A DNA stretch of 64,000 nucleotides, from positions 254,908 through 318,907 of the forward strand of contig CAWBVW010000006.1 in NCBI GenBank assembly GCA_963792365.1. The letters are read 5' to 3'. The stretch comes from an uncultured bacterium. Its GTDB lineage: Bacteria > Actinomycetota > Acidimicrobiia > Spongiisociales > ZC4RG35. Numbering within the stretch: the stretch's first letter is position 1; every line of letters starts with the position of its first letter. The position numbers and the translations under genes were made by a program. Positions 1-12,396 of this stretch are shown piece by piece. Under the pieces are notes generated by a model, which was given only the letters and a program-made list of their open reading frames with translations, was not told the DNA's origin and ran no database searches.

Positions 1-1
1 C

Positions 2-616
2 GAGGCCCACCAGGTCAGAGCGCTGCTCGCGCTGTTGCCGTTGCAACACTCGCGCCGTGACGCCCGGCATCGCCACGGCCACTTGGTGACCCTCGCCCAT
101 CAGGACCGCTCACTGTGGCATCAGAACGAGATACGAGCTGGGCTCGACCTCCTTGCCTCACGCGATCCGGGCGACGGCTACACCGAAGACCTCCGAGTCC
201 AGGCCCTCATCGCCGCGGAGCACGTTCAGGCAGCCACCGCCAAAGAGACCCACTGGGAGACGATCGCCGAGCACTATGCCACGCTCGAAGCGCTCACCGG
301 CTCAGCGATCGTGCGACTGAATCGGGCGGTCGCAGTTGCTGAAGCCCAGGGACCCCGGGCCGGCCTCGATCTCTTGCTGGGACTGGACGAAATCCTTCCC
401 GGCAATCACCGAGTCGCCGCCGTTCGTGCCGAACTCGCCCGGCAAGTCGGTGACGTCGACCTCGCGCGGATCTCCTACAGCAAAGCGGTCGAGCTGTGCA
501 CCAACCAAGTCGAGAGGACTCACCTTCGCGATCGGCTCGACGAGCTCGCAGATGTCTCGGCCGACGCGGTTCTGAGTCGCCGTGGCGGAGAACGAAGCCG
601 GCACGCGCCCTCGTAG
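2..616 (+). CDS. ECF RNA polymerase sigma factor, C-terminal DUF6596/TPR-like extension (ECF42-like); 5' end outside window
   Basis: Frame is open from base 2. Motifs ALLALL..QHSRRDAR, LAHQDRSLW, WETIAEHYATLEALTGSAIVRLNRAVAVAEAQGPRAGL and ARISYSKAVEL..ERTHLRDRL match this family from memory. Confidence 0.75.
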   Translation, partial: EAHQVRALLALLPLQHSRRDARHRHGHLVTLAHQDRSLWHQNEIRAGLDLLASRDPGDGYTEDLRVQALIAAEHVQAATAKETHWETIAEHYATLEALTGSAIVRLNRAVAVAEAQGPRAGLDLLLGLDEILPGNHRVAAVRAELARQVGDVDLARISYSKAVELCTNQVERTHLRDRLDELADVSADAVLSRRGGERSRHAPS

Positions 617-710
617 CGTGGTCATCTCCTCCGGCCTGAGGTGAGCGCTCACGCGCGGACCTGGTCGATTCGCCGGGCAGACCTTCGGAGATATGAGACC
701 CCCAAACCAG

Positions 711-1206: not shown

Positions 1207-1466
1207 GGCATGTCCTCCCTGGTTTGTGGGAGCAGGTCGTAGAAGGTCGGTCGGAGGGGCATGGCGTGGATCACCAGGGTGATGTCGTCGGCGAGTTCGA
1301 GCCAGATGATCTCCAGCAGGTTGCCGGCTTTGTCGGGTCCGATAGCGAGGACCTTGGGTGGATCGGCGTCGGGATCGAGATCAATGACGGTGATGGCATG
1401 GTCAAGGGCGTGGCGGATGGCTGCGTCGTCGATACCGTGCTTGCGTGCCGACCGGTGGATCTCCAC
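1203..1466 (-). CDS. Putative type II toxin (RelE/BrnT-like fold) of a toxin-CopG pair
   Basis: 87 aa with SARKHGI...LAIGPDKAGNLLEII...VIHAMPLR; upstream of and overlapping the RHH gene. Confidence 0.65.
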   Translation of the reverse strand: MEIHRSARKHGIDDAAIRHALDHAITVIDLDPDADPPKVLAIGPDKAGNLLEIIWLELADDITLVIHAMPLRPTFYDLLPQTREDMP

Positions 1467-1473
1467 ATCAAAA

Positions 1474-1483
1474 TATTGTAATA
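1474..1483 (-). promoter_or_regulatory. Candidate -10 box and autoregulatory operator of the toxin-CopG operon (likely leaderless)
   Basis: Near-palindrome TATTGTAATA containing TACAAT on the minus strand, ~8 nt before the GTG start. Confidence 0.45.
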
Positions 1484-1554
1484 CGAAAATGGGGTGAAGG
1501 GCCGACCGCCCAACATCTCTGCAGTACGTCTACGTGTCAGCGTGTCGCCCGAAG

Positions 1555-1625
1555 CCGATCCTAGAAGTGCCGATCTGGCGCACACGGCGGAATGGGCGTT
1601 CGTGCTGCGTATTCGGTGATCGGCG
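1555..1625 (+). repeat. ~71-bp intergenic structured repeat, copy A
   Basis: CCGATC-CTAGAA-GTGCCGATCTGGCGCACACGGCGGAATGGGCGTTCGTGCTGCGTATTCGGTGATCGGCG; 50/62 identical to copy B by manual alignment. Confidence 0.85.
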
Positions 1626-1628
1626 CTG

Positions 1629-2099
1629 CTATGTCCAGAGCGGGAGTTCACCGTCTCGGTTAGGCAAGACCCGGGTCAGCCACTCGGTGAAAGTCTGGCT
1701 CCACAAGCTGACACCAGTGGAAGCCTCGTGGATGTACTGAACTGGCGGATCATGCCCAGCGCCGATCTCTACCCAGGCGACGGCACCACTTGGATCCGAC
1801 AGGAATATCGCCACGTTACCGACGAGATCTTGTGGCAGACCAGCGATCTCGAGGGTGCGCCGCATGTGCTCTCCACCTTCCGAGAGGACTTCGCTCCCGA
1901 CTCTTGTACTCGGGAACCACACAGGCCTGAGATCACCGTCTCCAAGCATGACCAGAAACTCATCGAGCGCCGCTGGTAGCGATGGATCGCTGTGTTCTAG
2001 ATCGAGGGGTTCGACACCAACGCCGAGGCGGCGCGCTGCCTCCCCTACCAATCCCCTGACGCGAGTACGCACACCGTCTGCAGACTCAGCTGCCACCAA
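1629..2099 (-). CDS. SMI1/KNR4 (SUKH) family protein, putative immunity protein
   Basis: LPAALDEFL..LGDG at the N-terminus and AIFLSDPSG..AWVEIGAGHDPPV....TFTEWL at the C-terminus are typical of SUKH; stop codon abuts repeat A. Confidence 0.7.
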   Translation of the reverse strand: MVAAESADGVRTRVRGLVGEAARRLGVGVEPLDLEHSDPSLPAALDEFLVMLGDGDLRPVWFPSTRVGSEVLSEGGEHMRRTLEIAGLPQDLVGNVAIFLSDPSGAVAWVEIGAGHDPPVQYIHEASTGVSLWSQTFTEWLTRVLPNRDGELPLWT

Positions 2100-2189
2100 A
2101 CACCATTGCCTCGGATAGTTCTCAAGCTACCACCCCTGAGCACGTACGCCTTGGTGATGCGATGAGCAGGCGGGACAGGTTGTCCATAA

Positions 2190-2263
2190 CCATTCCTCGG
2201 CGTGCCGTTCCCGGACACTCAGCGACATCCGCACTCAGTGACGTGTGCGTGTCGTGATAGAGC
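2190..2263 (+). repeat. Degenerate copy G of the ~71-bp repeat
   Basis: CCATTC-CTCGGC-GTGCCGTTCCCGGACACTCAGCG...GTGATAGAGCG; spacing of the 5' part is conserved, the rest is diverged. Confidence 0.35.
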
Positions 2264-2384
2264 GCACTCGACACCTTCGGCAAGCGTCCGTGCGGAGTCG
2301 TCTGTCAGGATTGCGAGCCGGATCGTCGATCAGGCCGCAGAGATCCGCTCGAGTCTCCGGTGATCTCCAGACTCGTTGATGCAG

Positions 2385-2455
2385 CCGCACCTGGAGGTGC
2401 CGCTCGGCGCTATCTGCCGATGTGAGCGTTTCTGTCCGGGATCAGGTGATCGGCG
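2385..2455 (+). repeat. ~71-bp intergenic structured repeat, copy D
   Basis: CCGCAC-CTGGAG-GTGCCGCTCGGCGCTATCTGCCGATGTGAGCGTTTCTGTCCGGGATCAGGTGATCGGCG. Confidence 0.85.
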
Positions 2456-2484
2456 TGGGTCTTCCCTTGGGCGATTGGGTGTGG

Positions 2485-2494
2485 CACAATTGTG
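2485..2494 (+). promoter_or_regulatory. Palindromic operator / -10 region of the phd-relE operon
   Basis: Perfect palindrome CACAATTGTG at the antitoxin start. Confidence 0.5.
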
Positions 2495-2767
2495 GCCATG
2501 TCAAGTGAATCGTTGCGAACTGTGCGTGACCGCTTCTCGGAGTTCATCGAACGCGTCCAAGCACACCATGAGCGTGTCGTTGTAACCAAGAACGGGACGC
2601 CGGCCGCCGTCCTCATCAGCCCCGAAGACCTCGAATCACTGGAAGAGACCCTTGCGGTGCTGGGTGACGCTGATGCGGTGGCTGAACTCGTCGAGGCCCA
2701 CCGCGCCTATCTGGAAGGCGACGTGGTGCGCGGGGTCGACGCCGTCAGGGCTCTCCGACCCCGGTGA
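2492..2767 (+). CDS. Phd/YefM family antitoxin
   Basis: RDRFSEFIERVQAHHERVVVTKNGTPAAVLISPEDLESLEETL; GTGA overlap with the toxin gene. Confidence 0.92.
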   Translation: MAMSSESLRTVRDRFSEFIERVQAHHERVVVTKNGTPAAVLISPEDLESLEETLAVLGDADAVAELVEAHRAYLEGDVVRGVDAVRALRPR

Positions 2768-3042
2768 CCGAATCCCGGTACGAGATCGTGGTGACCGCGC
2801 CAGCGGCGCGCGCCATCCGCGAGACGCTCCCTGAAGCAGTGGCGTTCGCTGTCATCGACTTCATCACCGGACCGCTACTCGACAACCCGCGGCGGGTAGG
2901 CGGCGCGCTCCGCAACGAGCTGAATGGCGTCTGGAGCGCTCGACGCGGCACCTACCGCATCCTCTACCGCATCGACGACGACCGGCGAGAAGTCATCGTG
3001 CTCCGTGTCGGGCACCGCCGCGACATCTACCGACCGCAGTGA
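2764..3042 (+). CDS. RelE/ParE family toxin
   Basis: YEIVVTAPAAR...LLDNPRRVGGALRNELNGVWSARRGTYRILYRIDDDRREVIVLRVGHRRDIYR. Confidence 0.92.
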   Translation: MTESRYEIVVTAPAARAIRETLPEAVAFAVIDFITGPLLDNPRRVGGALRNELNGVWSARRGTYRILYRIDDDRREVIVLRVGHRRDIYRPQ

Positions 3043-3046
3043 GCGC

Positions 3047-3117
3047 CCGCACAAAGTCGTGCCGATCCAGCGCACCCGGCGAGATGTGCGTTTCTGCTCA
3101 GTATCTGGGGATCTGCG
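3047..3117 (+). repeat. ~71-bp intergenic structured repeat, copy F
   Basis: CCGCAC-AAAGTC-GTGCCGATCCAGCGCACCCGGCGAGATGTGCGTTTCTGCTCAGTATCTGGGGATCTGCG; starts 5 bp after the relE stop. Confidence 0.85.
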
Positions 3118-3126
3118 TTCAATAGG

Positions 3127-3546
3127 ATGTTGGTGATGTCGACGAGAGCGGACTTGGGCGGTGTCGACACGGTGGATGTACCTGGGGTCGTCCTTGCCAT
3201 CACTGCCGTGCTGGCCGCTGCGGCGTCGTTCCTGGTGAAACCAGGGTCGGGTTTCGGTCCGGCTGCAACGGCGCTCGTAGCATGGCTGTCGCTGTTGTTG
3301 GCAGCCTGCTGGGTCGGCTTCGTCGATGAGGGTGCAACAACCTGGCATCGAATGGGCGCCGTGGTGTTCGGCGCAGTATGCGCCGTTGGGTTCATCACAA
3401 CATCCCAATCCGTCTGGGGTCTTACGTTTCCGTCCGTTGCATTGGCGGCGGCGCTGGGTCGGCGGCGATCGTCCCCTCGCTTGGTGGCGGCAGCCGCTTG
3501 GCTTGCCGCCATCGTCTTCGTCGTCCTGGGCAACGTGCTGCCGTGA
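3127..3546 (+). CDS. Hypothetical membrane protein (~4 TM)
   Basis: 139-aa ORF with several hydrophobic segments, lying between repeats F and C. Confidence 0.55.
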   Translation: MLVMSTRADLGGVDTVDVPGVVLAITAVLAAAASFLVKPGSGFGPAATALVAWLSLLLAACWVGFVDEGATTWHRMGAVVFGAVCAVGFITTSQSVWGLTFPSVALAAALGRRRSSPRLVAAAAWLAAIVFVVLGNVLP

Positions 3547-3671
3547 AGCACATTGAGGTGTAGACGTCATCGGTTGTCGCGAAGCACTTGAGATTCGTCT
3601 TCACCAGGCGGTGACGGTCCACCGGCCGGACCGACTTCGCCACGGTGCGTAGCAACGACCCTGTCTCGGAA

Positions 3672-3741
3672 CCGCTCCTGGACGTGCCGCTCGGCGTGGT
3701 TCGCTCAGCGGTGCGATATCGCTCATACCGGGTGATCGGCG
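3672..3741 (+). repeat. ~70-bp intergenic structured repeat, copy C
   Basis: CCGCTC-CTGGAC-GTGCCGCTCGGCGTGGTTCGCTCAGCGGTGCGATATCGCTCATACCGGGTGATCGGCG. Confidence 0.8.
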
Positions 3742-3811
3742 TGCGATCTCGCAGCCCCTTGGCGTTGAGATCGACCGTGGCCTTGTGTGGTGGGTCGGCC
3801 GGGTTGATGGT

Positions 3812-4457
3812 CTATCGGCGGCCGGCTGCGTTCAATTCGGGGTGTTCGCCTCGTGGCCGGAGGCCTGAGAGCTTGTGGGCAGGTCCTCGGATGGTTACGC
3901 CAGATTGACGTGCCCGGTCAGGGGTTATCCGTCCGAGTAGGACGCCGACGACTGGTTCGGTTGGGCCGGTGAGGATGACGTCCGGCTGGCGGGTGCGTCC
4001 GGGCGTGAGCTGCACGCGACCGGCTCGCAACTCGAGAGTGAACACGTCATCGTCGGTGGAGAGTTCGACGGTGAGATCGCTCCGTTTTGGGTCGCGGCCG
4101 TCGAAGCGTGCAAATGACCATGTGGTGGAGCCAGGGTGTCTGGAAGTGATCGTCGCCCCGTGGCCGGGCCATGAGGGGACCGGCCCATCGACCGAGGGCG
4201 TACACGGCGTCACGCAGCTCGTATCCCCAGGCGGTGAGTTCGTATCGTCTGTCTGGGTGCCGTTCGAGCACGCCGGCGTCCGTGAGACTTCGGAGTCGGT
4301 CGGCGAGGAGGTTAGTGGCCATTCCGGGGAGGCCGCTGAGGAGATCGTTGTAGCCCTTGGGGCCGTCCAGGAGCTCCCGGACGATGAGCAACGTCCACCG
4401 CTCTCCGATCACGTCGAGGGCTCGCGCCAGGCCGCAGAACTGCTTGTAGGACCTCAC
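3812..4457 (-). CDS. HxlR-family winged-helix regulator with C-terminal SCP2-like domain; frameshifted near 4115-4120 as given
   Basis: YKQFCGLARALDVIGERWTLLIVRELLDGPKGYNDL (HxlR); continuation ARFDG...VELSTDDDVFTLELRAGRVQLTPGRTRQPDVILTG in the adjacent frame; one extra T in GTCATTTGCA explains the shift. Confidence 0.75.
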
Positions 4458-4528
4458 CTTGTGAATCCTAGCTTGCTAATCTCCAGTGCTACAACTAGAT
4501 AATAGTCAAGCTACGAGAGAGGACAGTC

Positions 4529-4921
4529 GTGAATGCCGCAACCAGAGCAGTCGTCACCGACTACACGACAGCAGTGAGCGACGGCGACTTCGAACGCCTC
4601 ACCCAACTCGTCCATCCCGACGCCACCTTCGGCGGAACGGTCATGACCGAGGCGAAAGGCGTAGAAGCGTTCGTTCAGGGGTTCCGCAACCTCCGTCCGA
4701 TCACCCTGCGCACAGATGTCCGCAACGTGGTGGTTGAAGAGGATCACGCCGCCATCCTCTACGAGCTGGTCACCGACACACCGGTCGGGTCAGTGCTGTG
4801 CTCGGAGTTCCTGACCATCGACACCGACCGGATCCGGGCCAGCACCCTGATATTCGATTGGCGACACTGGCCGCAGGTCCTCGAGGAACTTCGCAGCCGT
4901 GCCACCACGCCTGTCGACTGA
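4529..4921 (+). CDS. SnoaL/NTF2-like protein
   Basis: VVTDYTTAVSDGDFERLTQLVHPDATFGG...GVEAFVQGF...VVVEEDHAAILY; divergent from HxlR. Confidence 0.8.
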   Translation: MNAATRAVVTDYTTAVSDGDFERLTQLVHPDATFGGTVMTEAKGVEAFVQGFRNLRPITLRTDVRNVVVEEDHAAILYELVTDTPVGSVLCSEFLTIDTDRIRASTLIFDWRHWPQVLEELRSRATTPVD

Positions 4922-4931
4922 GGAACCAGGG

Positions 4932-5267
4932 GTGGCCTACGACACGGATCTCGCGGAACGACTTCGAGAAGCGCTATCGAGCGAGCCAGACGTGACGGAG
5001 CGGAAGATGTTCGGCGGCCTTGCCTTCCTCGTCAGGGGTCACATGACCGTCGTGGCCAGCAGCCAGGGCGGGCTGATGATCAGAGCCGACCCCACCACCA
5101 CTGCCACTCTCGTCGAGACGACCCCCGCCGTCTACGCAGAAATGAGGGGACGCACCATGAACGGCTGGCTCCGACTCACTGCGGTAGACGTCGACCCAGA
5201 CGATGAATTCGCACGCTGGATCGACCGGGCCCTCAGCTACACCTCCACGCTACCCCCCAAGCAGTAG
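4932..5267 (+). CDS. TfoX/Sxy N-terminal domain protein
   Basis: MAYDTDLAERLREAL...ERKMFGGLAFLVRGHMTV...GGLMIR...MRGRTMNGWLRL; GTG start chosen after the AGGA RBS. Confidence 0.85.
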   Translation: MAYDTDLAERLREALSSEPDVTERKMFGGLAFLVRGHMTVVASSQGGLMIRADPTTTATLVETTPAVYAEMRGRTMNGWLRLTAVDVDPDDEFARWIDRALSYTSTLPPKQ

Positions 5268-5307
5268 CCACCGACGCCCAGCCTTGCCACACTGGGTGAT
5301 CGCAGCA

Positions 5308-5378
5308 CCGCACTCCGAGGTGCCGATCTAGCGCACTCGGCGGAGTGCTCGTTCGTGTACCCGATTTGGTGATCGGGG
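5308..5378 (+). repeat. ~71-bp intergenic structured repeat, copy B
   Basis: CCGCAC-TCCGAG-GTGCCGATCTAGCGCACTCGGCGGAGTGCTCGTTCGTGTACCCGATTTGGTGATCGGGG. Confidence 0.85.
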
Positions 5379-5404
5379 CTGATCCCAACGGCTAGCTTGC
5401 GGGT

Positions 5405-6067
5405 GTGTTCTCGGATTCGGCGTACGACGCGGCATGGCGTGACCTGGCTCCCATGTTTCGGGTCTGCCTCGACCAGGCTTGGTTATCGCTTGGTTGTCGA
5501 GGTCTTCCCGTCGGGGCCGTGGTCTCGTTCGAGGGTGAGGACATCTCCCGGGGGCGGAATCGGGTGTACGACCCGCCCGGCGGGGATGATCCTCTCCAGC
5601 GCACTCCCGTGGCACATGCTGAGATGAACGCGATCGCGTCGGTGCCGCCCGACTTTGATCTATCCGACTGCCGGTTGTGGACGACTCAGGAACCCTGTTC
5701 GATGTGTAGCGCGGCGATCGACATTGCCGAGATCGCAGGCGTCGGATACCTCGCCTCTGACCCGTCAGCGGCATCAGGGAGCCGGTTCGTCTCATCGGGC
5801 GGATCGGACGACATCTGGATCGTCGTCGCCAATGCGTTGTTCTTGCACAACATCGCCTGGGTAGGGGGCAAAGACAATCCGGTGCTGGAGCGGAACAGGC
5901 TGCATGAGCCCGAGGTGGTGTCGTTGGCTCTGAACTTCGTTGAGCACGGCTCGCTCATCGTCCCGGCGGCCCGTGGAGCGTCGATCGAGGAGACGCTTGG
6001 TGAGCTCTGGGTGCAGTTGGAGGAGACTTCGCTGAGGCGTCGTAGCCGGCTCCGCTCCAGTTCTTGA
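5405..6067 (+). CDS. Zinc-dependent nucleoside deaminase (cytidine/dCMP deaminase superfamily)
   Basis: AHAEMNA and EPCSMC zinc-binding motifs. Confidence 0.85.
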   Translation: MFSDSAYDAAWRDLAPMFRVCLDQAWLSLGCRGLPVGAVVSFEGEDISRGRNRVYDPPGGDDPLQRTPVAHAEMNAIASVPPDFDLSDCRLWTTQEPCSMCSAAIDIAEIAGVGYLASDPSAASGSRFVSSGGSDDIWIVVANALFLHNIAWVGGKDNPVLERNRLHEPEVVSLALNFVEHGSLIVPAARGASIEETLGELWVQLEETSLRRRSRLRSSS

Positions 6068-6087
6068 CCCGCCGTACGCTCCAAGAC

Positions 6088-6158
6088 CCAAGCGCATCAG
6101 TGCCGCTATGCGTGGCTCCGGCGTTGGCGTGTTATCGCTCGGGATCGGGCGATCGGCG
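6088..6158 (+). repeat. ~71-bp intergenic structured repeat, copy E (left arm degenerate)
   Basis: GTGCCGCTATGCGTGGCTCCGGCGTTGGCGTGTTATCGCTCGGGATCGGGCGATCGGCG at 6100-6158, the same 59-nt core length as A, B, D and F. Confidence 0.75.
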
Positions 6159-6317
6159 TGGACAAGGGGAGGGTGGAAGGCATGGCGTGTACGTTGGGGT
6201 CGATGGTTGCCAATCCGTTCGATCCGTAAGGACGGCTCGTCGGTTTGCCGGGGGTCGCCCCGACTACTCGACCTTCGTGTCGAACATTGGCCGAAAACTG
6301 ACCGGTAGCATCCCACG

Positions 6318-7226
6318 ATGGCGACCTACCACCCCGATCTGACCAAGGCACGGTTCTATCCGCCATCACTCGGCCTTCCCCGAACGCTGCCCTTCTTCCG
6401 CGCCATCGAGGCGCTTCAGAAGCGCTTCATCACTCCAAAGGCACGCAAGGTGTCGGTCAGCGAAACCGCCGATGTCTACTACGTCGGTCCGCCGTCAGGA
6501 CGCAGGCCCGCCCCGGCGCTGCTGTGGATACACGGCGGCGGCATGGTGGTCGGGACCGCCGTCACGGAGTTCTCGCTGACCCACAAGCGGTACATCCCCC
6601 ACATTGATATGGCGATGGCCTTCGTCGAATACCGCCTTGCCCCCAAACACCCGTTCCCGGCAGCGATGGACGACTGTGCCGCAGCGCTGGCGTGGTTGGC
6701 CGATCAACCCGATGTCGACCCCAGCCGCATCGCCATCGGTGGCCCCAGCGCAGGTGGCGGCCTGGCCGCAGGACTGGCTCTACGAGCTCGAGATGAGATG
6801 GGCGTCAAACCCGTCTTCCAAATGCTGATCTACCCGATGATCGACGACCGCACCGCCCAGCGAACAGACCTGGACGACATGCCGGTCAAGCTGTGGAACC
6901 AGACCTGCAACCGCTTCGGCTGGTCCTCGTACCTGGCTGGTGCCACGGGCGACGACGTGCACCCACACGCTGCACCATCCCGCGCCGAAGACCTGTCCGG
7001 CCTACCGCCGGCGTGGATCGGAGTCGGCACGTTGGACCTGTTTCACGACGAAGACGTCGAGTACGCTCGACGCCTGCAGGAGGCTGGCGTGCCCTGTGAA
7101 CTGAAGGTGGTCGAGGGCGGCTACCACGGCTTCGAGGCGGCGCTCAGCGCCCCGGTTGTGCAGGACTTCCACCGCAGCCAGATCGACGCACTCAGGGCGG
7201 CGTTTGATCCAGACCCGGCAGGCTGA
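6318..7226 (+). CDS. Alpha/beta hydrolase (HSL-family esterase/lipase)
   Basis: HGGG oxyanion motif, GPSAGG nucleophile elbow, D..HDE and YHGF catalytic motifs. Confidence 0.92.
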   Translation: MATYHPDLTKARFYPPSLGLPRTLPFFRAIEALQKRFITPKARKVSVSETADVYYVGPPSGRRPAPALLWIHGGGMVVGTAVTEFSLTHKRYIPHIDMAMAFVEYRLAPKHPFPAAMDDCAAALAWLADQPDVDPSRIAIGGPSAGGGLAAGLALRARDEMGVKPVFQMLIYPMIDDRTAQRTDLDDMPVKLWNQTCNRFGWSSYLAGATGDDVHPHAAPSRAEDLSGLPPAWIGVGTLDLFHDEDVEYARRLQEAGVPCELKVVEGGYHGFEAALSAPVVQDFHRSQIDALRAAFDPDPAG

Positions 7227-7340
7227 GCGCCGCCTCAACAACCTCGATCTCGATGTCGCCAAGCCAGCCTGGCTCCGCCATGTAGCAGCCGACAACTGAA
7301 GATATCGTGCGATTGACGGTCTCGAGGAAACCCCTCCCGA

Positions 7341-7385
7341 CCGAGCGCTGACGGGCCGCTATGGGCGCCTGTCTGCTCGTGGCTC
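7341..7385 (+). repeat. Truncated/degenerate copy H of the ~71-bp repeat
   Basis: CCGAGC-GCTGAC-GGGCCGCTATG keeps the 6-N6-G.GCCG spacing and resembles copy E; the 3' end is missing. Confidence 0.35.
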
Positions 7386-8148
7386 AGCCCCCGATTGTCG
7401 ACCTGCGGATTGGTCTCGCTGCTAATTGGGCGCGAACGGTGAGCAGCATGAGGGCTTGGAGGAAGACGCTCATCATCAGGGGACGGAGCCCCGCCAGGTC
7501 CAGGTCCGCCAGAACGTCCTTGCCTAGGAAGTAGACGCTGAGGCCGATGCTGATAGCGGCCAGAACGTTGATAGACCTACCGGCTTCCTCCCACCGGACC
7601 CGAGACTCCTCGGTCGATGCCCGTCGCGCGGATAGAAGGTTTGCTACGACGGTGAACACGATGACGAGGTTCGCGAGCGTGACGATTCGGATTTTCGCCC
7701 ACTGAGTTGTCACCGCTTCGTTCTGATGGATCACTGACGCAGCTACGTACCCGATGTAGGCGACTGCGGCACCGACGACCAGCGGACGCGATACTCGTTG
7801 TGGCAAGCCACTACTGGCACTCAACAAACCCAGAACCCCCCGGTCGCCGATGAGGGCGGCAACCTGGACGAAGAAATACAGTCCGGTCGTCAACAGGATC
7901 AGCGTCAACGAGTTCTCGAAGTCGGAGAGCCAGGCCACGAGCATGGGCGCCAGTCCGACAGCGACAAGGAACCGGTTGCGGTTCAGATACCGCTGGAAAT
8001 GGCGACCGTCCATAGGGGGATCGTGGACTTCCTGCAGCTTCTGTTTACCGGCGGCCTCGACTACCCGCGTCGGAAGGTAGATCGAGATCACGTACATCTG
8101 CGACAGGAGTGCGACGGTGTACAGACCGGTGAGTAGGGCGGCGGTCAT
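7384..8148 (-). CDS. Hypothetical polytopic membrane protein
   Basis: ~254 aa with ~7 hydrophobic helices; ATG after the GAGGAG RBS. Confidence 0.65.
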   Translation of the reverse strand: MTAALLTGLYTVALLSQMYVISIYLPTRVVEAAGKQKLQEVHDPPMDGRHFQRYLNRNRFLVAVGLAPMLVAWLSDFENSLTLILLTTGLYFFVQVAALIGDRGVLGLLSASSGLPQRVSRPLVVGAAVAYIGYVAASVIHQNEAVTTQWAKIRIVTLANLVIVFTVVANLLSARRASTEESRVRWEEAGRSINVLAAISIGLSVYFLGKDVLADLDLAGLRPLMMSVFLQALMLLTVRAQLAARPIRRSTIGG

Positions 8149-8299
8149 TGTCGGCTCCTCCAGCAGCGGCGCCACCGACGTTAATCCAGAACCTCTCTCC
8201 AGGCTTGACTACACCCACCAATACCCGCTCCATATCCGGCCTCTTGTTAGAACTGGACGTGATTCGGGGGCTCGGCGAGTCTTCGGGTCGGGGTCCTGG

Positions 8300-9535
8300 A
8301 TGGCTCGCTCGTGAACCGGCTGCCCGGCCCGGGTTCGGGTTGTGGCTCTTGAATGGCTGGCGGCCTGGACTCCGGATGGGGTGTGGCTGAAGAGAGGTCT
8401 GCTCTGCTCGAAGAGGCATTGCCCGTCCCGTCCACCGTCAGGACAACAAGGACGAGGAGGAGAGGGCAATGACTGAGATGATTGTGGGTCTCGATCCGCA
8501 CAAGGCGTCGAACACGATTGCTGTGTTGGATCGGGATGAGACACTCCTTGTGCGGTGTCGGTTCGATAACACGGCTGAGGGCATGGTTGAGATGCTTGCG
8601 GCGGTGGCGGGTTTCCCTACCCGGGTGTGGGCTGTTGAGGGCGCGAACGGTATCGGACGCAGTGTGGCGCAGCGGCTGGTCGCCGCCGGTGAGACAGTGA
8701 TAGATGTCCCGGCGAAGCTGGCGACACGGGTCCGGGTCTACTCGACGGGGCATGGCAACAAGACGGATGGGGCTGACGCGGTGGCTATTGCTCGGGCAGC
8801 TCTGCACAGCAAGCATCTGCGGATGGTGCGTCGCGATGACGCCAACGTGGCGTTGAAGCTGTTGTCGGATCGGCGCCACGAGTTGGTCGCATCGAGGACC
8901 CAGTCGGTGTGTCGGCTGCATCGGCTGATCCGCGAACTGGTCCCCGGAGGGACACCTCGAGCATTGACCGCTGAGCGGGCAGAAGCCCTGGTCAACGGGC
9001 TGAATGTGTCTGATGCTGCTGGGCTGATGCGGGTCGAACTCGCCCTCGACCACATCGAAGACATCAAGCGGTTCGATCGTCGCCTCGACCAGATCATGTT
9101 GCAGATCCAGGCAGCAGTCAAAGACTCTGACACCACCCTCACCCGGATCTACGGGGTCGGGACTCTCAACGCCGGTCTCATCCTCGGGGAGGTCGGTGAC
9201 GTGTCCCGGTTCCCAACCCGCAACCACTTTGCCAGCTACACCGGCACAGCCCCCATCGCGGTGTCATCGGGCGACATCAACCGACACCGACTGAGCCGGT
9301 CCGGGAATCGGCAACTCAACCACGCCATCCACGTCGCTGCCATAACCCAGATCCGCTTCGACACCCCAGGCCGTGCCTACTACCAGCCCCGTCTAGGCTC
9401 AGAACCGGTTCGGGGTGTGGCCACACCAAAGCATCAGCACCGAGGCGAACAGCTGATCACGCGGAAGGCTTCAACGCCACCAGACGTCCTCACCTGCCCA
9501 CCCCGAACCCCTCTCACTTGACAGAGAGGAGCCAT
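8300..9535 (+). mobile_element. IS110-family insertion sequence (ends approximate)
   Basis: IS110 transposase; short inverted repeats ATGGCTC (8300-8306) and GAGCCAT (9529-9535); ~170-nt 5' non-coding region. Confidence 0.75.
8469..9521 (+). CDS. IS110-family transposase/recombinase; C-terminal end appears altered or truncated
   Basis: DEDD residues in VGLDPHK, AVEG and KTDGADA; Tnp domain SSG..RHRLSRSGNRQLNHAIH; after GRAYYQ the usual K..KEALRCLKRR segment is absent in all three frames. Confidence 0.9.
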   Translation: MTEMIVGLDPHKASNTIAVLDRDETLLVRCRFDNTAEGMVEMLAAVAGFPTRVWAVEGANGIGRSVAQRLVAAGETVIDVPAKLATRVRVYSTGHGNKTDGADAVAIARAALHSKHLRMVRRDDANVALKLLSDRRHELVASRTQSVCRLHRLIRELVPGGTPRALTAERAEALVNGLNVSDAAGLMRVELALDHIEDIKRFDRRLDQIMLQIQAAVKDSDTTLTRIYGVGTLNAGLILGEVGDVSRFPTRNHFASYTGTAPIAVSSGDINRHRLSRSGNRQLNHAIHVAAITQIRFDTPGRAYYQPRLGSEPVRGVATPKHQHRGEQLITRKASTPPDVLTCPPRTPLT

Positions 9536-9982
9536 TATGCCGGTGATCCTGTCAAGAGCAGCCAGCAACTTGTTGCACGTGCGTGTGTGGTTGGAGGGTG
9601 GTAGGCGCGATTCGCGATCCGTGGCGGTGTCAGGCGGGTTTGCGGCGACGGTGGCATTGTTCGTGAGCTTCTCATTGCTAGTTCCTCTCGTTGGGCTCCG
9701 TTCCGGGATGAGTCGAGTACTCGACTTTGTTGTCGGCGGCGGGCTGCGAGTGGTCGCGTTCGCTTCGGGTGGGGCGCCCTTGGCGAGATGAGAACCGGGT
9801 CGTGGGGCCGTGGACGGTGCACAGCCGCCTCGACGGGGCGCTGCAGCCCACCTCGGCCGCGGCGGTGGCTCGCAGGACCTCTGTCCCCTGTCCCCGTCAG
9901 GCAGGCCATCGGCTGTCTCGAACCCCAGGTTCGTTGTCTCGAGGAGCCGAAGGACGGGAGCATCGTCACGATCTTCTCCCGT

Positions 9983-10418: not shown

Positions 10419-11531
10419 GCATCCATCTGCGCCTCACCGAGAGTGGTGATCGGCGCTACGACGTCCGCCTGCGCGATCCGTCCGGGAGGACCTACACGAG
10501 GACATTCCGGACCAGACGTGAGGCGGAGGCGTTCGCATCCGATGAGCAGGCGAACCGACGCCGGGGCGCCTGGCTGGACCCGCGCCGAGCCGAGACGACC
10601 CTGCGCGAGGTTGCCGCCGGGTGGCTCGACTCGAACCCCGCCAAGCGTCCATCCTCCCGCGCCCGGGACGACTCGGCGCTCCGAACCCACATCCCCCCTC
10701 GGGGACAGGCCGATCGGATCGCTCACCCCGTCCGACATCCAACGGTGCATCAATGACTGGTCACAGACACTGGCGCCCCGGTCGGTGCGGCGGGTATACC
10801 AGACCCTCGCGGCGGTACTCAACGCCGCCGTGCTCGACGATCGGATCGCACGTTCCCCCTGTCGGGGAATCCGACTTCCGGCCACCCAACCCATTGACCG
10901 GCCGGTCATCACCCCGAAGCAACTGGCGGACCTCGCAAGGGCCCTCGGCCCAGAGTTCGAGGCAATGGCGTACCTGGGTGCGGTGCTCGGTCTCCGCTGG
11001 GGCGAGTGCGCCGGTCTCCGGGTAGGGCGGATCGACTTCGACCGGTCGACCATCACCGTTGCCGAACAAGTGACACGAGGTGCCGGTGGACGATCCGTTA
11101 CCGGGCCACCCAAGTCGGAGGCAGGCCGAAGAACGCTGGCCGTTCCGGCGGCACTCATCGGCCTTCTCACACAACACCTTGGACGGCGGGGCCTCGGCCT
11201 CGAAAACCGGGACGCCTTCGTCTTCGGCACACCGGACGGTGAGCACCTCGACTACTCGAACTGGCTCCACCGCATCTGGTACCCCGCCCGGGCCAAGGCA
11301 AGCCTCGACTGGCTCCAGTTCCATGATCTCCGCCGGGCCAATGCCACCGGACTCGTCCTCGAAGGCATCGACCTCAAGACCGCCCAAACCCGGCTCGGTC
11401 ACACCGACCCCAGGCTCACCCTCGGCATCTACGCCCAGGCCAGCACCGAAGCCGACCGTCAAGCCGCAGAACGACTCGGCGAACGATTCCTTCCCCGACG
11501 CGACCTTGGCCGCGGTCAAAGCCTGTCATGA
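10415..11531 (+). CDS. int: Tyrosine integrase (phage/ICE type); frameshift in the C6 run at 10693-10698 as given
   Basis: N-terminal arm-binding-like segment (RYDVRLRDPSGRTYTRTFRTRREAEAF); catalytic LRWGE (R), FHDLRR (HxxR), LGH and TLGIYAQ (Y). Confidence 0.9.
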
Positions 11532-12261: not shown

Positions 12262-12282
12262 GAATCGACCTCCCAAACCAGA

Positions 12283-12302
12283 GGCCGCCCCGGAGGGCGG
12301 CC
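12283..12302 (-). terminator. Hairpin downstream of tRNA-Pro
   Basis: GGCCGCCC-cgga-GGGCGGCC. Confidence 0.65.
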
Positions 12303-12319
12303 CTGACCTGGTGTTTCTC

Positions 12320-12396
12320 TGGTCGGGACGGTGGGACTTGAACCCACGACCTCAGCGTCCCGAACGCTGCGCGCTACCAAGCTGCGCCACGTCCCG
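12320..12396 (-). tRNA. tRNA-Pro (anticodon CGG)
   Basis: Reverse complement CGGGACG-TGGCGCAGCTTGGTAGCGCG-CAGCG-TTCGGGA-CGCTG-AGGTC-GTGGG-TTCAAGT-CCCAC-CGTCCCG-ACCA folds as a cloverleaf with encoded CCA. Confidence 0.97.

Follow-up and report, generated by a model that had tools for sequence, protein, structure and literature searches.

The 64,000-nucleotide stretch of DNA analysed here (the window; C6:254908-318907 of G000, a 4.4-Mb genome of 65% G+C from an uncultured member of the Acidimicrobiia) contains, in an island linked to a tRNA-Pro gene, an array of small gene units separated by co-oriented copies of a repeat of about 75 bp. We consider it likely, at a probability of roughly 80%, that these repeats are double-strand, sequence-defined sites of site-specific recombination that divide the island into mobile cassettes. 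That they form a cassette system with its crossover in the hexamer GTGCCG appears firmer still, and tyrosine-recombinase chemistry is favoured to a lesser degree. The boundaries of the units, the fixed place of the crossover and the exchange of units between arrays and between genomes were all observed, in a system with no IntI, no attC and no conserved fold, and we infer that a tyrosine recombinase carries out the exchange in trans.

Results

Six good copies of the repeat (A to F) were found in the window by nhmmer, with E-values of 1e-9 to 1e-17. All of them are intergenic and on the + strand: A at 1555-1625, B at 2385-2455, C at 3047-3117, D at 3672-3741, E at 5308-5378 and F at 6088-6158, with the crossover hexamer at 1567-1572, 2397-2402, 3059-3064, 3684-3689, 5320-5325 and 6100-6105, respectively. 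An earlier note on this DNA had described six co-oriented intergenic copies at these places, correctly. The two degenerate copies that it reported at 2190 and 7341 are also present. The first is a partial copy g (2190-2260, + strand), which keeps the hexamer (2202-2207) and only about the first 25 nt and bounds an empty unit of 195 bp. The second is a decayed copy h (7341-7400, + strand), which has a normal cassette 3' end (CCGAGCGCTGAC), GGGCCG at 7353-7358 replacing GTGCCG, and F-type remnants. An extra decayed copy is interrupted by an insertion sequence (IS) of the IS110 type at 8226-9540. No further copies were found in the window by nhmmer at E <= 1e-3; copies g and h and the IS-split remnant stay below this threshold. 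The statement in the earlier note that the remaining ~52 kb holds no copies agrees with this search; the IS-split remnant is an addition to the copies that it listed.

Iterated nhmmer searches gathered 43 copies in the genome, at no fewer than 16 loci that consist of eight arrays of 2-7 copies and about eight singletons, contrary to the earlier claim that it is restricted to the tRNA-Pro island. The G000 consensus is aCCGCaCnCnGAn-GTGCCG-aTCnnGCGCACTCGGCGAnaTGnGCGTTnnnGCnCnnGATnTGGTGATCGGCG. Across the 41 aligned copies of G000 that were used for conservation and covariation counts, no position of GTGCCG falls below 90% conservation, and the flanks of the hexamer are variable; such conservation would be expected where a conservative site-specific recombinase exchanges strands. 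The ends of the repeat have the form aCCGCaC...GTGCCG...TGATCGGCG; their terminal inverted repeat is present as conserved sequence, with no sign of pairing. This consensus bears out the earlier observation that the ends lack the RYYYAAC/GTTRRRY motifs and are not attC.

Whole units recur elsewhere, cut at the hexamers. The deaminase unit of the window (5320-6105) is found again at C1:529254-528469 with 99.7% identity, beside a pair of recombinase genes, and the alignment between C6 and C1 breaks off exactly at GTGCCG on both sides. For the esterase unit (6100-7353), the identity is 98.8% to C9:6953-5688 and 96% to a copy in G002:C10, and hexamers bound it there too. A census of 128 repeat copies, taken from G000 and 33 loci of relatives, gave 12 left-junction pairs, which share the downstream side and have unrelated upstream sides, and 10 right-junction pairs, which share the upstream side and have unrelated downstream sides. 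The switch falls between base -1 and base +7 of the hexamer in every pair (22/22), and there were no pairs of copies at different loci with both flanks in common. Because all 22 breaks lie within GTGCCG, we conclude that the exchange is site-specific; homologous recombination would scatter the breaks over the ~50 further conserved bases. An attempt to fix the exchange between the first G and TGCCG by means of rare non-G variants was dropped, because a second IS110-type element was found to account for the 'A' variants, which are its right ends.

The content of the arrays also differs between genomes. At the orthologous tRNA-Pro island of G003 (L007), the flanking chromosome is 90-95% identical and the first toxin-antitoxin (TA) cassette 87% identical, and other cassettes follow. 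Gene content between the copies is thus variable, as the earlier note had anticipated, and identical gene order, which would have spoken against it, was not found. Each cassette of the window has its own spread among four congeneric genomes (G001-G004): the phd-parE cassette is present in all four, in different arrays and with different neighbours, and the esterase cassette in one. A 132-aa unit common to G023 and G002/G003 is a cassette found across genera. In G004 (L024, G004:C307, 3150-3300), the 66-bp repeat body that follows hexamer C (window 3063-3128) has been precisely deleted between parE and the membrane gene; the deletion fuses two cassettes into a single unit with two genes and shows a way in which multi-gene units can arise. 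With cassettes found in different arrays and genomes and all breaks inside GTGCCG, the suggestion that the repeats are recombination sites of an undescribed cassette-shuffling system has gained support. The tyrosine-recombinase core proposed at GCAC-N6-GTGC was close to the mark, in that the crossover lies in its GTGC(CG) half.

The wider range of the repeat was followed with a sequence-only covariance model in 41 relatives and in 301 genomes drawn evenly across the class. The repeat was found in 27 of the relatives and in 48 of the class-wide genomes, all of which belong to one order of Acidimicrobiia and represent 32 genera from 7 families. In G023, a complete genome, 17 copies are present. 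The median distance from site to site is 843 bp. Copies are co-oriented in all eight multi-copy loci of G000 and in 20 of the 20 array loci first examined from relatives. Copies scattered in both orientations had been named as the mark of a repetitive extragenic palindrome (REP) or a miniature inverted-repeat transposable element (MITE); the copies here do occur genome-wide, yet are clustered and co-oriented in arrays. The orientation of the repeats agrees with the sign of the GC skew at 10 loci and disagrees at 5. It is not strictly coupled to the direction of replication, which speaks against an obligatory single-strand route, and a strict dependence on the replication strand, in the style of single-strand transposons, is unsupported. 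The orientation of genes relative to repeats over all arrays (88 co-oriented versus 82 opposite) depends on crude calling of open reading frames (ORFs) in the loci of other genomes, is unreliable and was not used.

The earlier note had regarded the repeat as a folded element with conserved stems, and its hairpin as a possible single-strand substrate. RNAalifold gave no consensus structure for the repeat on either strand. With the proposed outer (GCCGATC/GATCGGC) and inner stems, 65.4% of the cells in the 41 copies were paired, compared to 64.8% in shuffles, and the stem covariation score was equalled in 73 of 500 shuffles. Single copies, with the exception of copy E, folded no better than shuffles. 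At the gathering score, Rfam 15 yielded tRNA-Pro alone in the window, and 1400-7600 was empty at E <= 5, so that the proposed check for a known non-coding RNA family matched none. A sigma-70-like promoter was not matched in 1400-7600, and we reject a promoter role of the repeat on this ground. A structured site or an RNA is likewise rejected on the RNAalifold result, the stem counts, the single-copy folds and the empty Rfam search; neither the conserved stems nor the hairpin substrate found support. A lack of stem covariation had been listed among the results that would tell against the original idea; it strikes only at the structured site, and the cassette system stands.

A candidate for the enzyme lies beside the C1 array of G000. 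It consists of two tandem genes whose products, YrecA and YrecB, are both Xer-like and both match PF00589. In G000, YrecA is intact (429 aa, C1:529309-530595) and YrecB is cut to 190 aa, compared to a full length of about 320-356 aa in other genomes. The two genes form a discrete module of ~2.5 kb, which was found in congeners and in eight other metagenome-assembled genomes (MAGs) of Acidimicrobiia. With junctions marked by slashes, its left end reads [cassette 3' end]/GTGAGG-ATATGGGGGTAATC and its right end GATTACCCCCATAT-N17-GATTACCCACATAA/GTGCCG-[cassette], with two 14-bp direct repeats after the YrecA stop; ATATGGGGGTAATC and GATTACCCACATAA are inverted repeats of each other. The right-hand cassette differs in the seven loci compared (G000, G002, two loci of G003 and three MAGs), and the left flank differs in all seven loci in which the left end was read. 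Because the neighbours change on both sides, the module occupies a cassette slot, and the fact that GTGAGG stays at the left and GTGCCG at the right suggests that strands are exchanged at one point only, the 5' edge of the hexamer. The cassette next to YrecA is duplicated elsewhere in the same genome, with at least 99.7% identity, in G000 (786 bp) and in G003 (1623 bp).

Elsewhere in Actinomycetota (Nocardioides, Nonomuraea, Micromonospora, Streptomyces and others), relatives of the pair with ~50% identity take the form of multicopy elements of 2.9 kb. These have terminal inverted repeats of 13-15 bp (…GATCACCCGCATAA) touching a 6-bp direct repeat, and occur in 2-4 identical copies per genome with CGCCGG flanks. 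Since the inverted repeats abut the 6-bp repeat, the enzyme family exchanges strands right beside ...CATAA, which is where the cassettes join the YrecA end. Elements of this kind were seen at L034/L035, L065/L068/L070, L064/L066, L043, L049, L052, L072, L092 and L101, and several subfamilies sit within IS3-type transposase genes, at their conserved 3' part (…CATAAGTTCAACCAC…). We found no description of a 2.9-kb YrecB-YrecA-like transposon family in the literature searched. In L100 (the Acidimicrobiales MAG CALJDK01, ~7315-7383), a distant YrecA with 49% identity is followed by …GATTACCGACATAA/TGCCGGTTCTGCGTGGCC…TGATCGGCC, a variant of the cassette repeat with the core ATGCCG that the covariance model left unscored. 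Judging from such variants, related site families beyond those counted may exist.

There are 13 PF00589 matches in G000. No match reaches the cut-off of 265 bits of the integron-integrase model TIGR02249, and IntI is thereby ruled out: the best score in G000 is 66.9 bits, and YrecA, YrecB and the integrase of the island score 35.9, 66.7 and 38.4 bits. The description of the nearby integrase as phage-type and not IntI is confirmed by these scores, and it is unlikely to be the cassette enzyme. Six of the eight phage-type integrases of G000 lie within 5 kb of an array, which indicates that arrays ride in tRNA-linked islands. Another Xer-like recombinase of 303 aa, XL (69.4 bits with the same model), is encoded inside arrays of G002 and G003 (L013:10080-10991, L007, L010 and L014). 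Its gene always runs opposite to the repeats; behind the gene come a terminator hairpin and the usual 3' end of a cassette (CCGCACGAAAC/TGCCGGATC), and several of its copies are pseudogenes. We rejected XL as a universal enzyme, because it is present in only 4 of the 41 relatives, is missing from G000 and sits in an ordinary cassette.

The sole ATAA-N6-TTAT site of G000 (C5:41665-41692, TTTACATAA-CGAACA-TTATGGGCG) lies at a switch of the GC skew and is probably the chromosomal dif. A singleton repeat (C5:41216-41285) is located 380 bp from it, with three to four iteron-like GAGATTTCGCCA repeats between the two.

Two IS110-family elements use the cassette repeat as a target. The one in the window (8226-9540, + strand; DEDD_Tnp_IS110 and Transposase_20) lies within a decayed repeat, and in G000 all four of its copies, the others being at C4:~392888-397370, C9:~1260-1572 and C1:1107139-, are placed between ...GGnAnCCGG and TGATCGG of the repeat. 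A second, different element (C9:4283-5687, with a 343-aa DEDD transposase) directly follows the copy of the esterase cassette and splits the hexamer after its first base (…GACG/IS…CTTGACAGGAACTGCCCGCTCAGGGA/TGCCG); related right ends are found at L022:~10317 of G003, L025:~4443 of G007 and C4:~398059.

A 104-bp stretch of the tRNA-Pro 3' region, directly repeated at 697-799 (attL) and 12267-12368 with 94% identity between the two, limits the island; tRNA-Pro(CGG) itself, a match at the Rfam gathering score, lies on the attR side (12320-12396, - strand). The units of the island, whose proteins were typed by Pfam, are tightly bracketed by the repeats, as first described. The first cassette is a TA pair on the - strand (925-1466) with an RHH antitoxin (925-1206) and a BrnT/DUF4258-like toxin (1203-1466). 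Its 3' end GCCGATCCTAGAA touches hexamer A, and it also heads the orthologous array of G003 and is present in G001. After repeat A follows a gene for a 156-aa protein (1629-2099, - strand), which has no homologue in the four congeneric genomes and no Pfam match, so that its proposed SMI1/KNR4 identity was not upheld. Downstream are the phd (PhdYeFM) and parE TA cassette (2492-3042, + strand), a gene for a hydrophobic 139-aa protein without a Pfam match (3127-3546, + strand), and a three-gene cassette (4047-5267) with an HxlR regulator (4047-4457, - strand), a SnoaL-like protein (4529-4921, + strand) and TfoX_N (4899-5267, + strand). The cytidine/dCMP-type deaminase (5405-6067, + strand) and the alpha/beta-hydrolase (Abhydrolase_3) esterase (6318-7226, + strand) come next; for these two and for phd/ParE, HxlR, SnoaL and TfoX, Pfam matched the first assignments. 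The last cassette gene encodes a 263-aa membrane protein with a weak Nodulin-like/MFS match (7384-8175, - strand).

The integrase of the island (10443-11531, + strand; PF00589) has about 100 N-terminal residues that are low-complexity, rich in Arg and Pro and without homology to its paralogues, and the gene is probably frameshifted at the N-terminus. Beside attL, a 3.2-kb stretch (window 1-700 and 2.5 kb upstream, C6:252243-255607) is missing at the orthologous G003 locus. It contains an HxlR-SnoaL-TfoX paralogue with 81% identity to window 3832-5276 and a yciI/ECF-sigma-like pair with 84% identity to the C8 array, and these paralogues have no recognisable flanking repeats.

Discussion

Integrons are the textbook case of gene capture by site-specific recombination and are nearly absent, in their true form, from this phylum; the arrays described here appear to follow the same logic with other parts. 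The mobile unit extends from one hexamer to the next. It begins with GTGCCG, continues with ~52 conserved bases (aTCnnGCGCACTCGGCGAnaTGnGCGTT...GATnTGGTGATCGGCG) and includes one to three genes and the short 3' end aCCGCaCnCnGAn. The exchange takes place at one fixed point within the hexamer, probably at its 5' edge. We propose that a tyrosine recombinase would act on duplex sites whose asymmetric arms and centre measure about 13-6-11 bp, and that the distal ~40 bp of the repeat would be accessory sequence. Circular cassettes would be the intermediates, each excised circle carrying one regenerated site and able to enter any other site, and such entry would build co-oriented arrays. Where it is present, YrecAB with its attI-like right end might be the capture enzyme, in which case most arrays would be leftovers resembling CALINs (clusters of attC sites lacking integron integrases).

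Our identification of YrecAB as the cassette enzyme is tentative, and we hold it with low confidence. The variable first cassette after the YrecA end in seven loci is what an attI-like site would be expected to show, and the module also has a left end of the transposon type. With the same reserve, we suggest that one order of Acidimicrobiia could possess an independent analogue of the integron. It would consist of an Xer-like pair domesticated from a transposon with two recombinases, one retained transposon end (the two 14-bp repeats and the junction hexamer) serving as the attI-like site, and duplex sites of ~75 bp that exchange only where GTGCCG begins. Being itself a cassette, the module with the recombinases would make the platform mobile between island arrays.

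Several observations weigh against this proposal, in particular against its enzyme. YrecA was found in 6 of the 41 relatives, compared to 27 that have repeats, and the complete genome G023 lacks YrecA despite its 17 repeats. The YrecB of G000 is truncated, which makes current activity of YrecAB in this genome doubtful, and a second copy carries a frameshift. The cassette next to YrecA has no duplicate in G002 and G323. A position weight matrix (PWM) of the YrecAB end gave a mean best score of -4.1 on ordinary repeats versus -5.6 +/- 4.4 on shuffles; with the motif missing from ordinary repeats, it is unexplained how the enzyme would recognise them. The sole stretch common to YrecAB right ends and ordinary repeats is GGTGATC, and the arms beside the hexamer are palindromic at GA/TC only. 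The idea that ordinary cassettes are MITE-like derivatives of YrecAB was rejected, since the PWM of 37 distinct right ends did no better than shuffles. It is possible that YrecAB is merely a transposon aimed at the hexamer, like the second IS110-type element.

The alternative that follows from this last point is unlikely in our view, and yet it is the one to be taken most seriously. It accepts the sites as real and has them served by another enzyme, be it host XerC/XerD, XL or an enzyme of a plasmid or phage, with YrecAB and the IS110 elements as parasites only. Many genomes have repeats and neither YrecA nor XL, and XerC/D is universal. YrecAB has ends of the transposon type and transposon relatives, the hexamer is also the insertion site of an unrelated IS110-type element, and one singleton repeat is close to the probable dif. 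However, the cassette site has no ATAA/TTAT arms, and the only site in G000 with both is that probable dif, which argues against the host Xer proteins; the narrow distribution of XL argues against it in turn. The fresh duplicates at the YrecA-proximal slot in two genomes also speak for a role of YrecAB itself rather than of another enzyme.

It is very improbable that the repeat is a dispersed element of the REP, BIME (bacterial interspersed mosaic element) or MITE kind, or that its copies have a common regulatory function, for instance as promoters, operators or RNAs in 5' untranslated regions, with the mosaic produced by homologous recombination. Such a view could draw on the 43 copies across the genome, on the fact that most cassette genes of the window have the long part of the repeat on their upstream side, and on the G.U-type pairs that are possible in some inner stems. 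However, the copies are clustered and strictly co-oriented, and no conserved structure was seen on either strand, no Rfam family at E <= 5 and no sigma-70-like match. Above all, the 22 junctions that share one 6-bp segment despite more than 50 further conserved bases are not what homologous recombination would leave, and the junction census largely refutes this explanation. The repeat thus differs from REP, BIME and MITE sequences in being clustered and co-oriented, in having no conserved hairpin and in bounding exchangeable units.

We give equally little credit to the idea that the phage-type integrases of the tRNA-linked islands also recombine the cassettes. Their closeness to the arrays fits it, and so does the order attL - array - integrase - tRNA, which recurs in other genera. 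However, the att sites of the island, at the tRNA-Pro 3' end, do not contain GTGCCG and are unlike the repeat; the integrases are only 27-55% identical to one another while the site is uniform; several arrays of G023 have no integrase within 10 kb; and the integrase ORF of the window looks damaged at its N-terminus.

A true integron or CALIN with very divergent attC sites, and with IntI elsewhere in the population, is hardly credible: the layout is integron-like in its co-oriented arrays, its units of ~0.8 kb, its many TA pairs, its single crossover and its IS110 elements at the site, but no IntI was found (67 bits at best, against 265), the ends lack RYYYAAC/GTTRRRY, the site is conserved in sequence without covariation, its long part is 5' of the gene, opposite to attC, and published surveys have turned up no complete integron in Actinobacteria (PMC9024848).

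The likeness to integrons and CALINs is nevertheless extensive. Either system strings small units, most of them poor in promoters and many of them TA pairs, into co-oriented arrays, with one recombination site per unit and one fixed exchange point in a short invariant core. In both, arrays without a nearby recombinase far outnumber complete platforms, and IS110-family elements parasitise the site. In contrast to integrons, the site here is conserved by its sequence and not by its fold, and its long part precedes the cassette gene, whereas in attC it follows the gene. The enzyme candidates, a tandem pair of Xer-like proteins, share the orientation of the array and are themselves lodged in a cassette slot, and there are several arrays per genome, mostly in tRNA-linked islands. 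The system therefore functions like an integron and shares its co-oriented cassettes with a fixed crossover, and it has neither of the two defining features, IntI and attC. In the literature searched, we found no paper on such cassettes in Acidimicrobiia and none that joins Acidimicrobiia, integron and attC.

Other known systems share single features with it, though it belongs to neither the pdif nor the REP/MITE type. The pdif modules of Acinetobacter plasmids and the integrative mobile elements exploiting Xer (IMEX) likewise have short double-strand sites for tyrosine recombinases, with 6 bp in the centre, as their boundaries. Their Xer enzymes resemble the candidates here, and the YrecA end (…CCCACATAA and 6 bp) resembles half a dif site. 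However, ordinary cassette sites have no ATAA/TTAT arms, are co-oriented where pdif sites alternate and have ~50 extra conserved bases, and the dif core of the host is unrelated to the cassette core. YrecB-YrecA is comparable in its architecture to Tn554, to the recombinase-in-trio (RIT) elements and to strand-biased circularising integrative elements, the only signal in its sequence being a weak GmtY match, far below the cut-off. Like them, it has tandem tyrosine recombinases, short terminal inverted repeats, a 6-bp junction sequence, site-specific insertion and multicopy relatives. It differs from them in having two genes instead of three, and in that the Acidimicrobiia subfamily is confined to cassette hexamers, between ordinary cassettes. 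The presence of two different IS110-family elements at fixed positions of the repeat recalls the IS1111-attC elements; the target here is a non-attC repeat, and the IS110 elements are passengers and not part of the cassette machinery.

The order of Acidimicrobiia that carries these arrays is abundant in soil, freshwater, marine water and wastewater. Our results indicate that within this order the logic of the integron, with small exchangeable cassettes, a fixed crossover and many arrays per genome, operates without attC or IntI. If the enzyme is confirmed, the system would represent a second, independent origin of cassette platforms and would provide a sequence-defined tool for cassette recombination on duplex DNA, which might suit high-GC Gram-positive hosts. 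It would also explain part of the turnover of the accessory genome in these uncultured bacteria.

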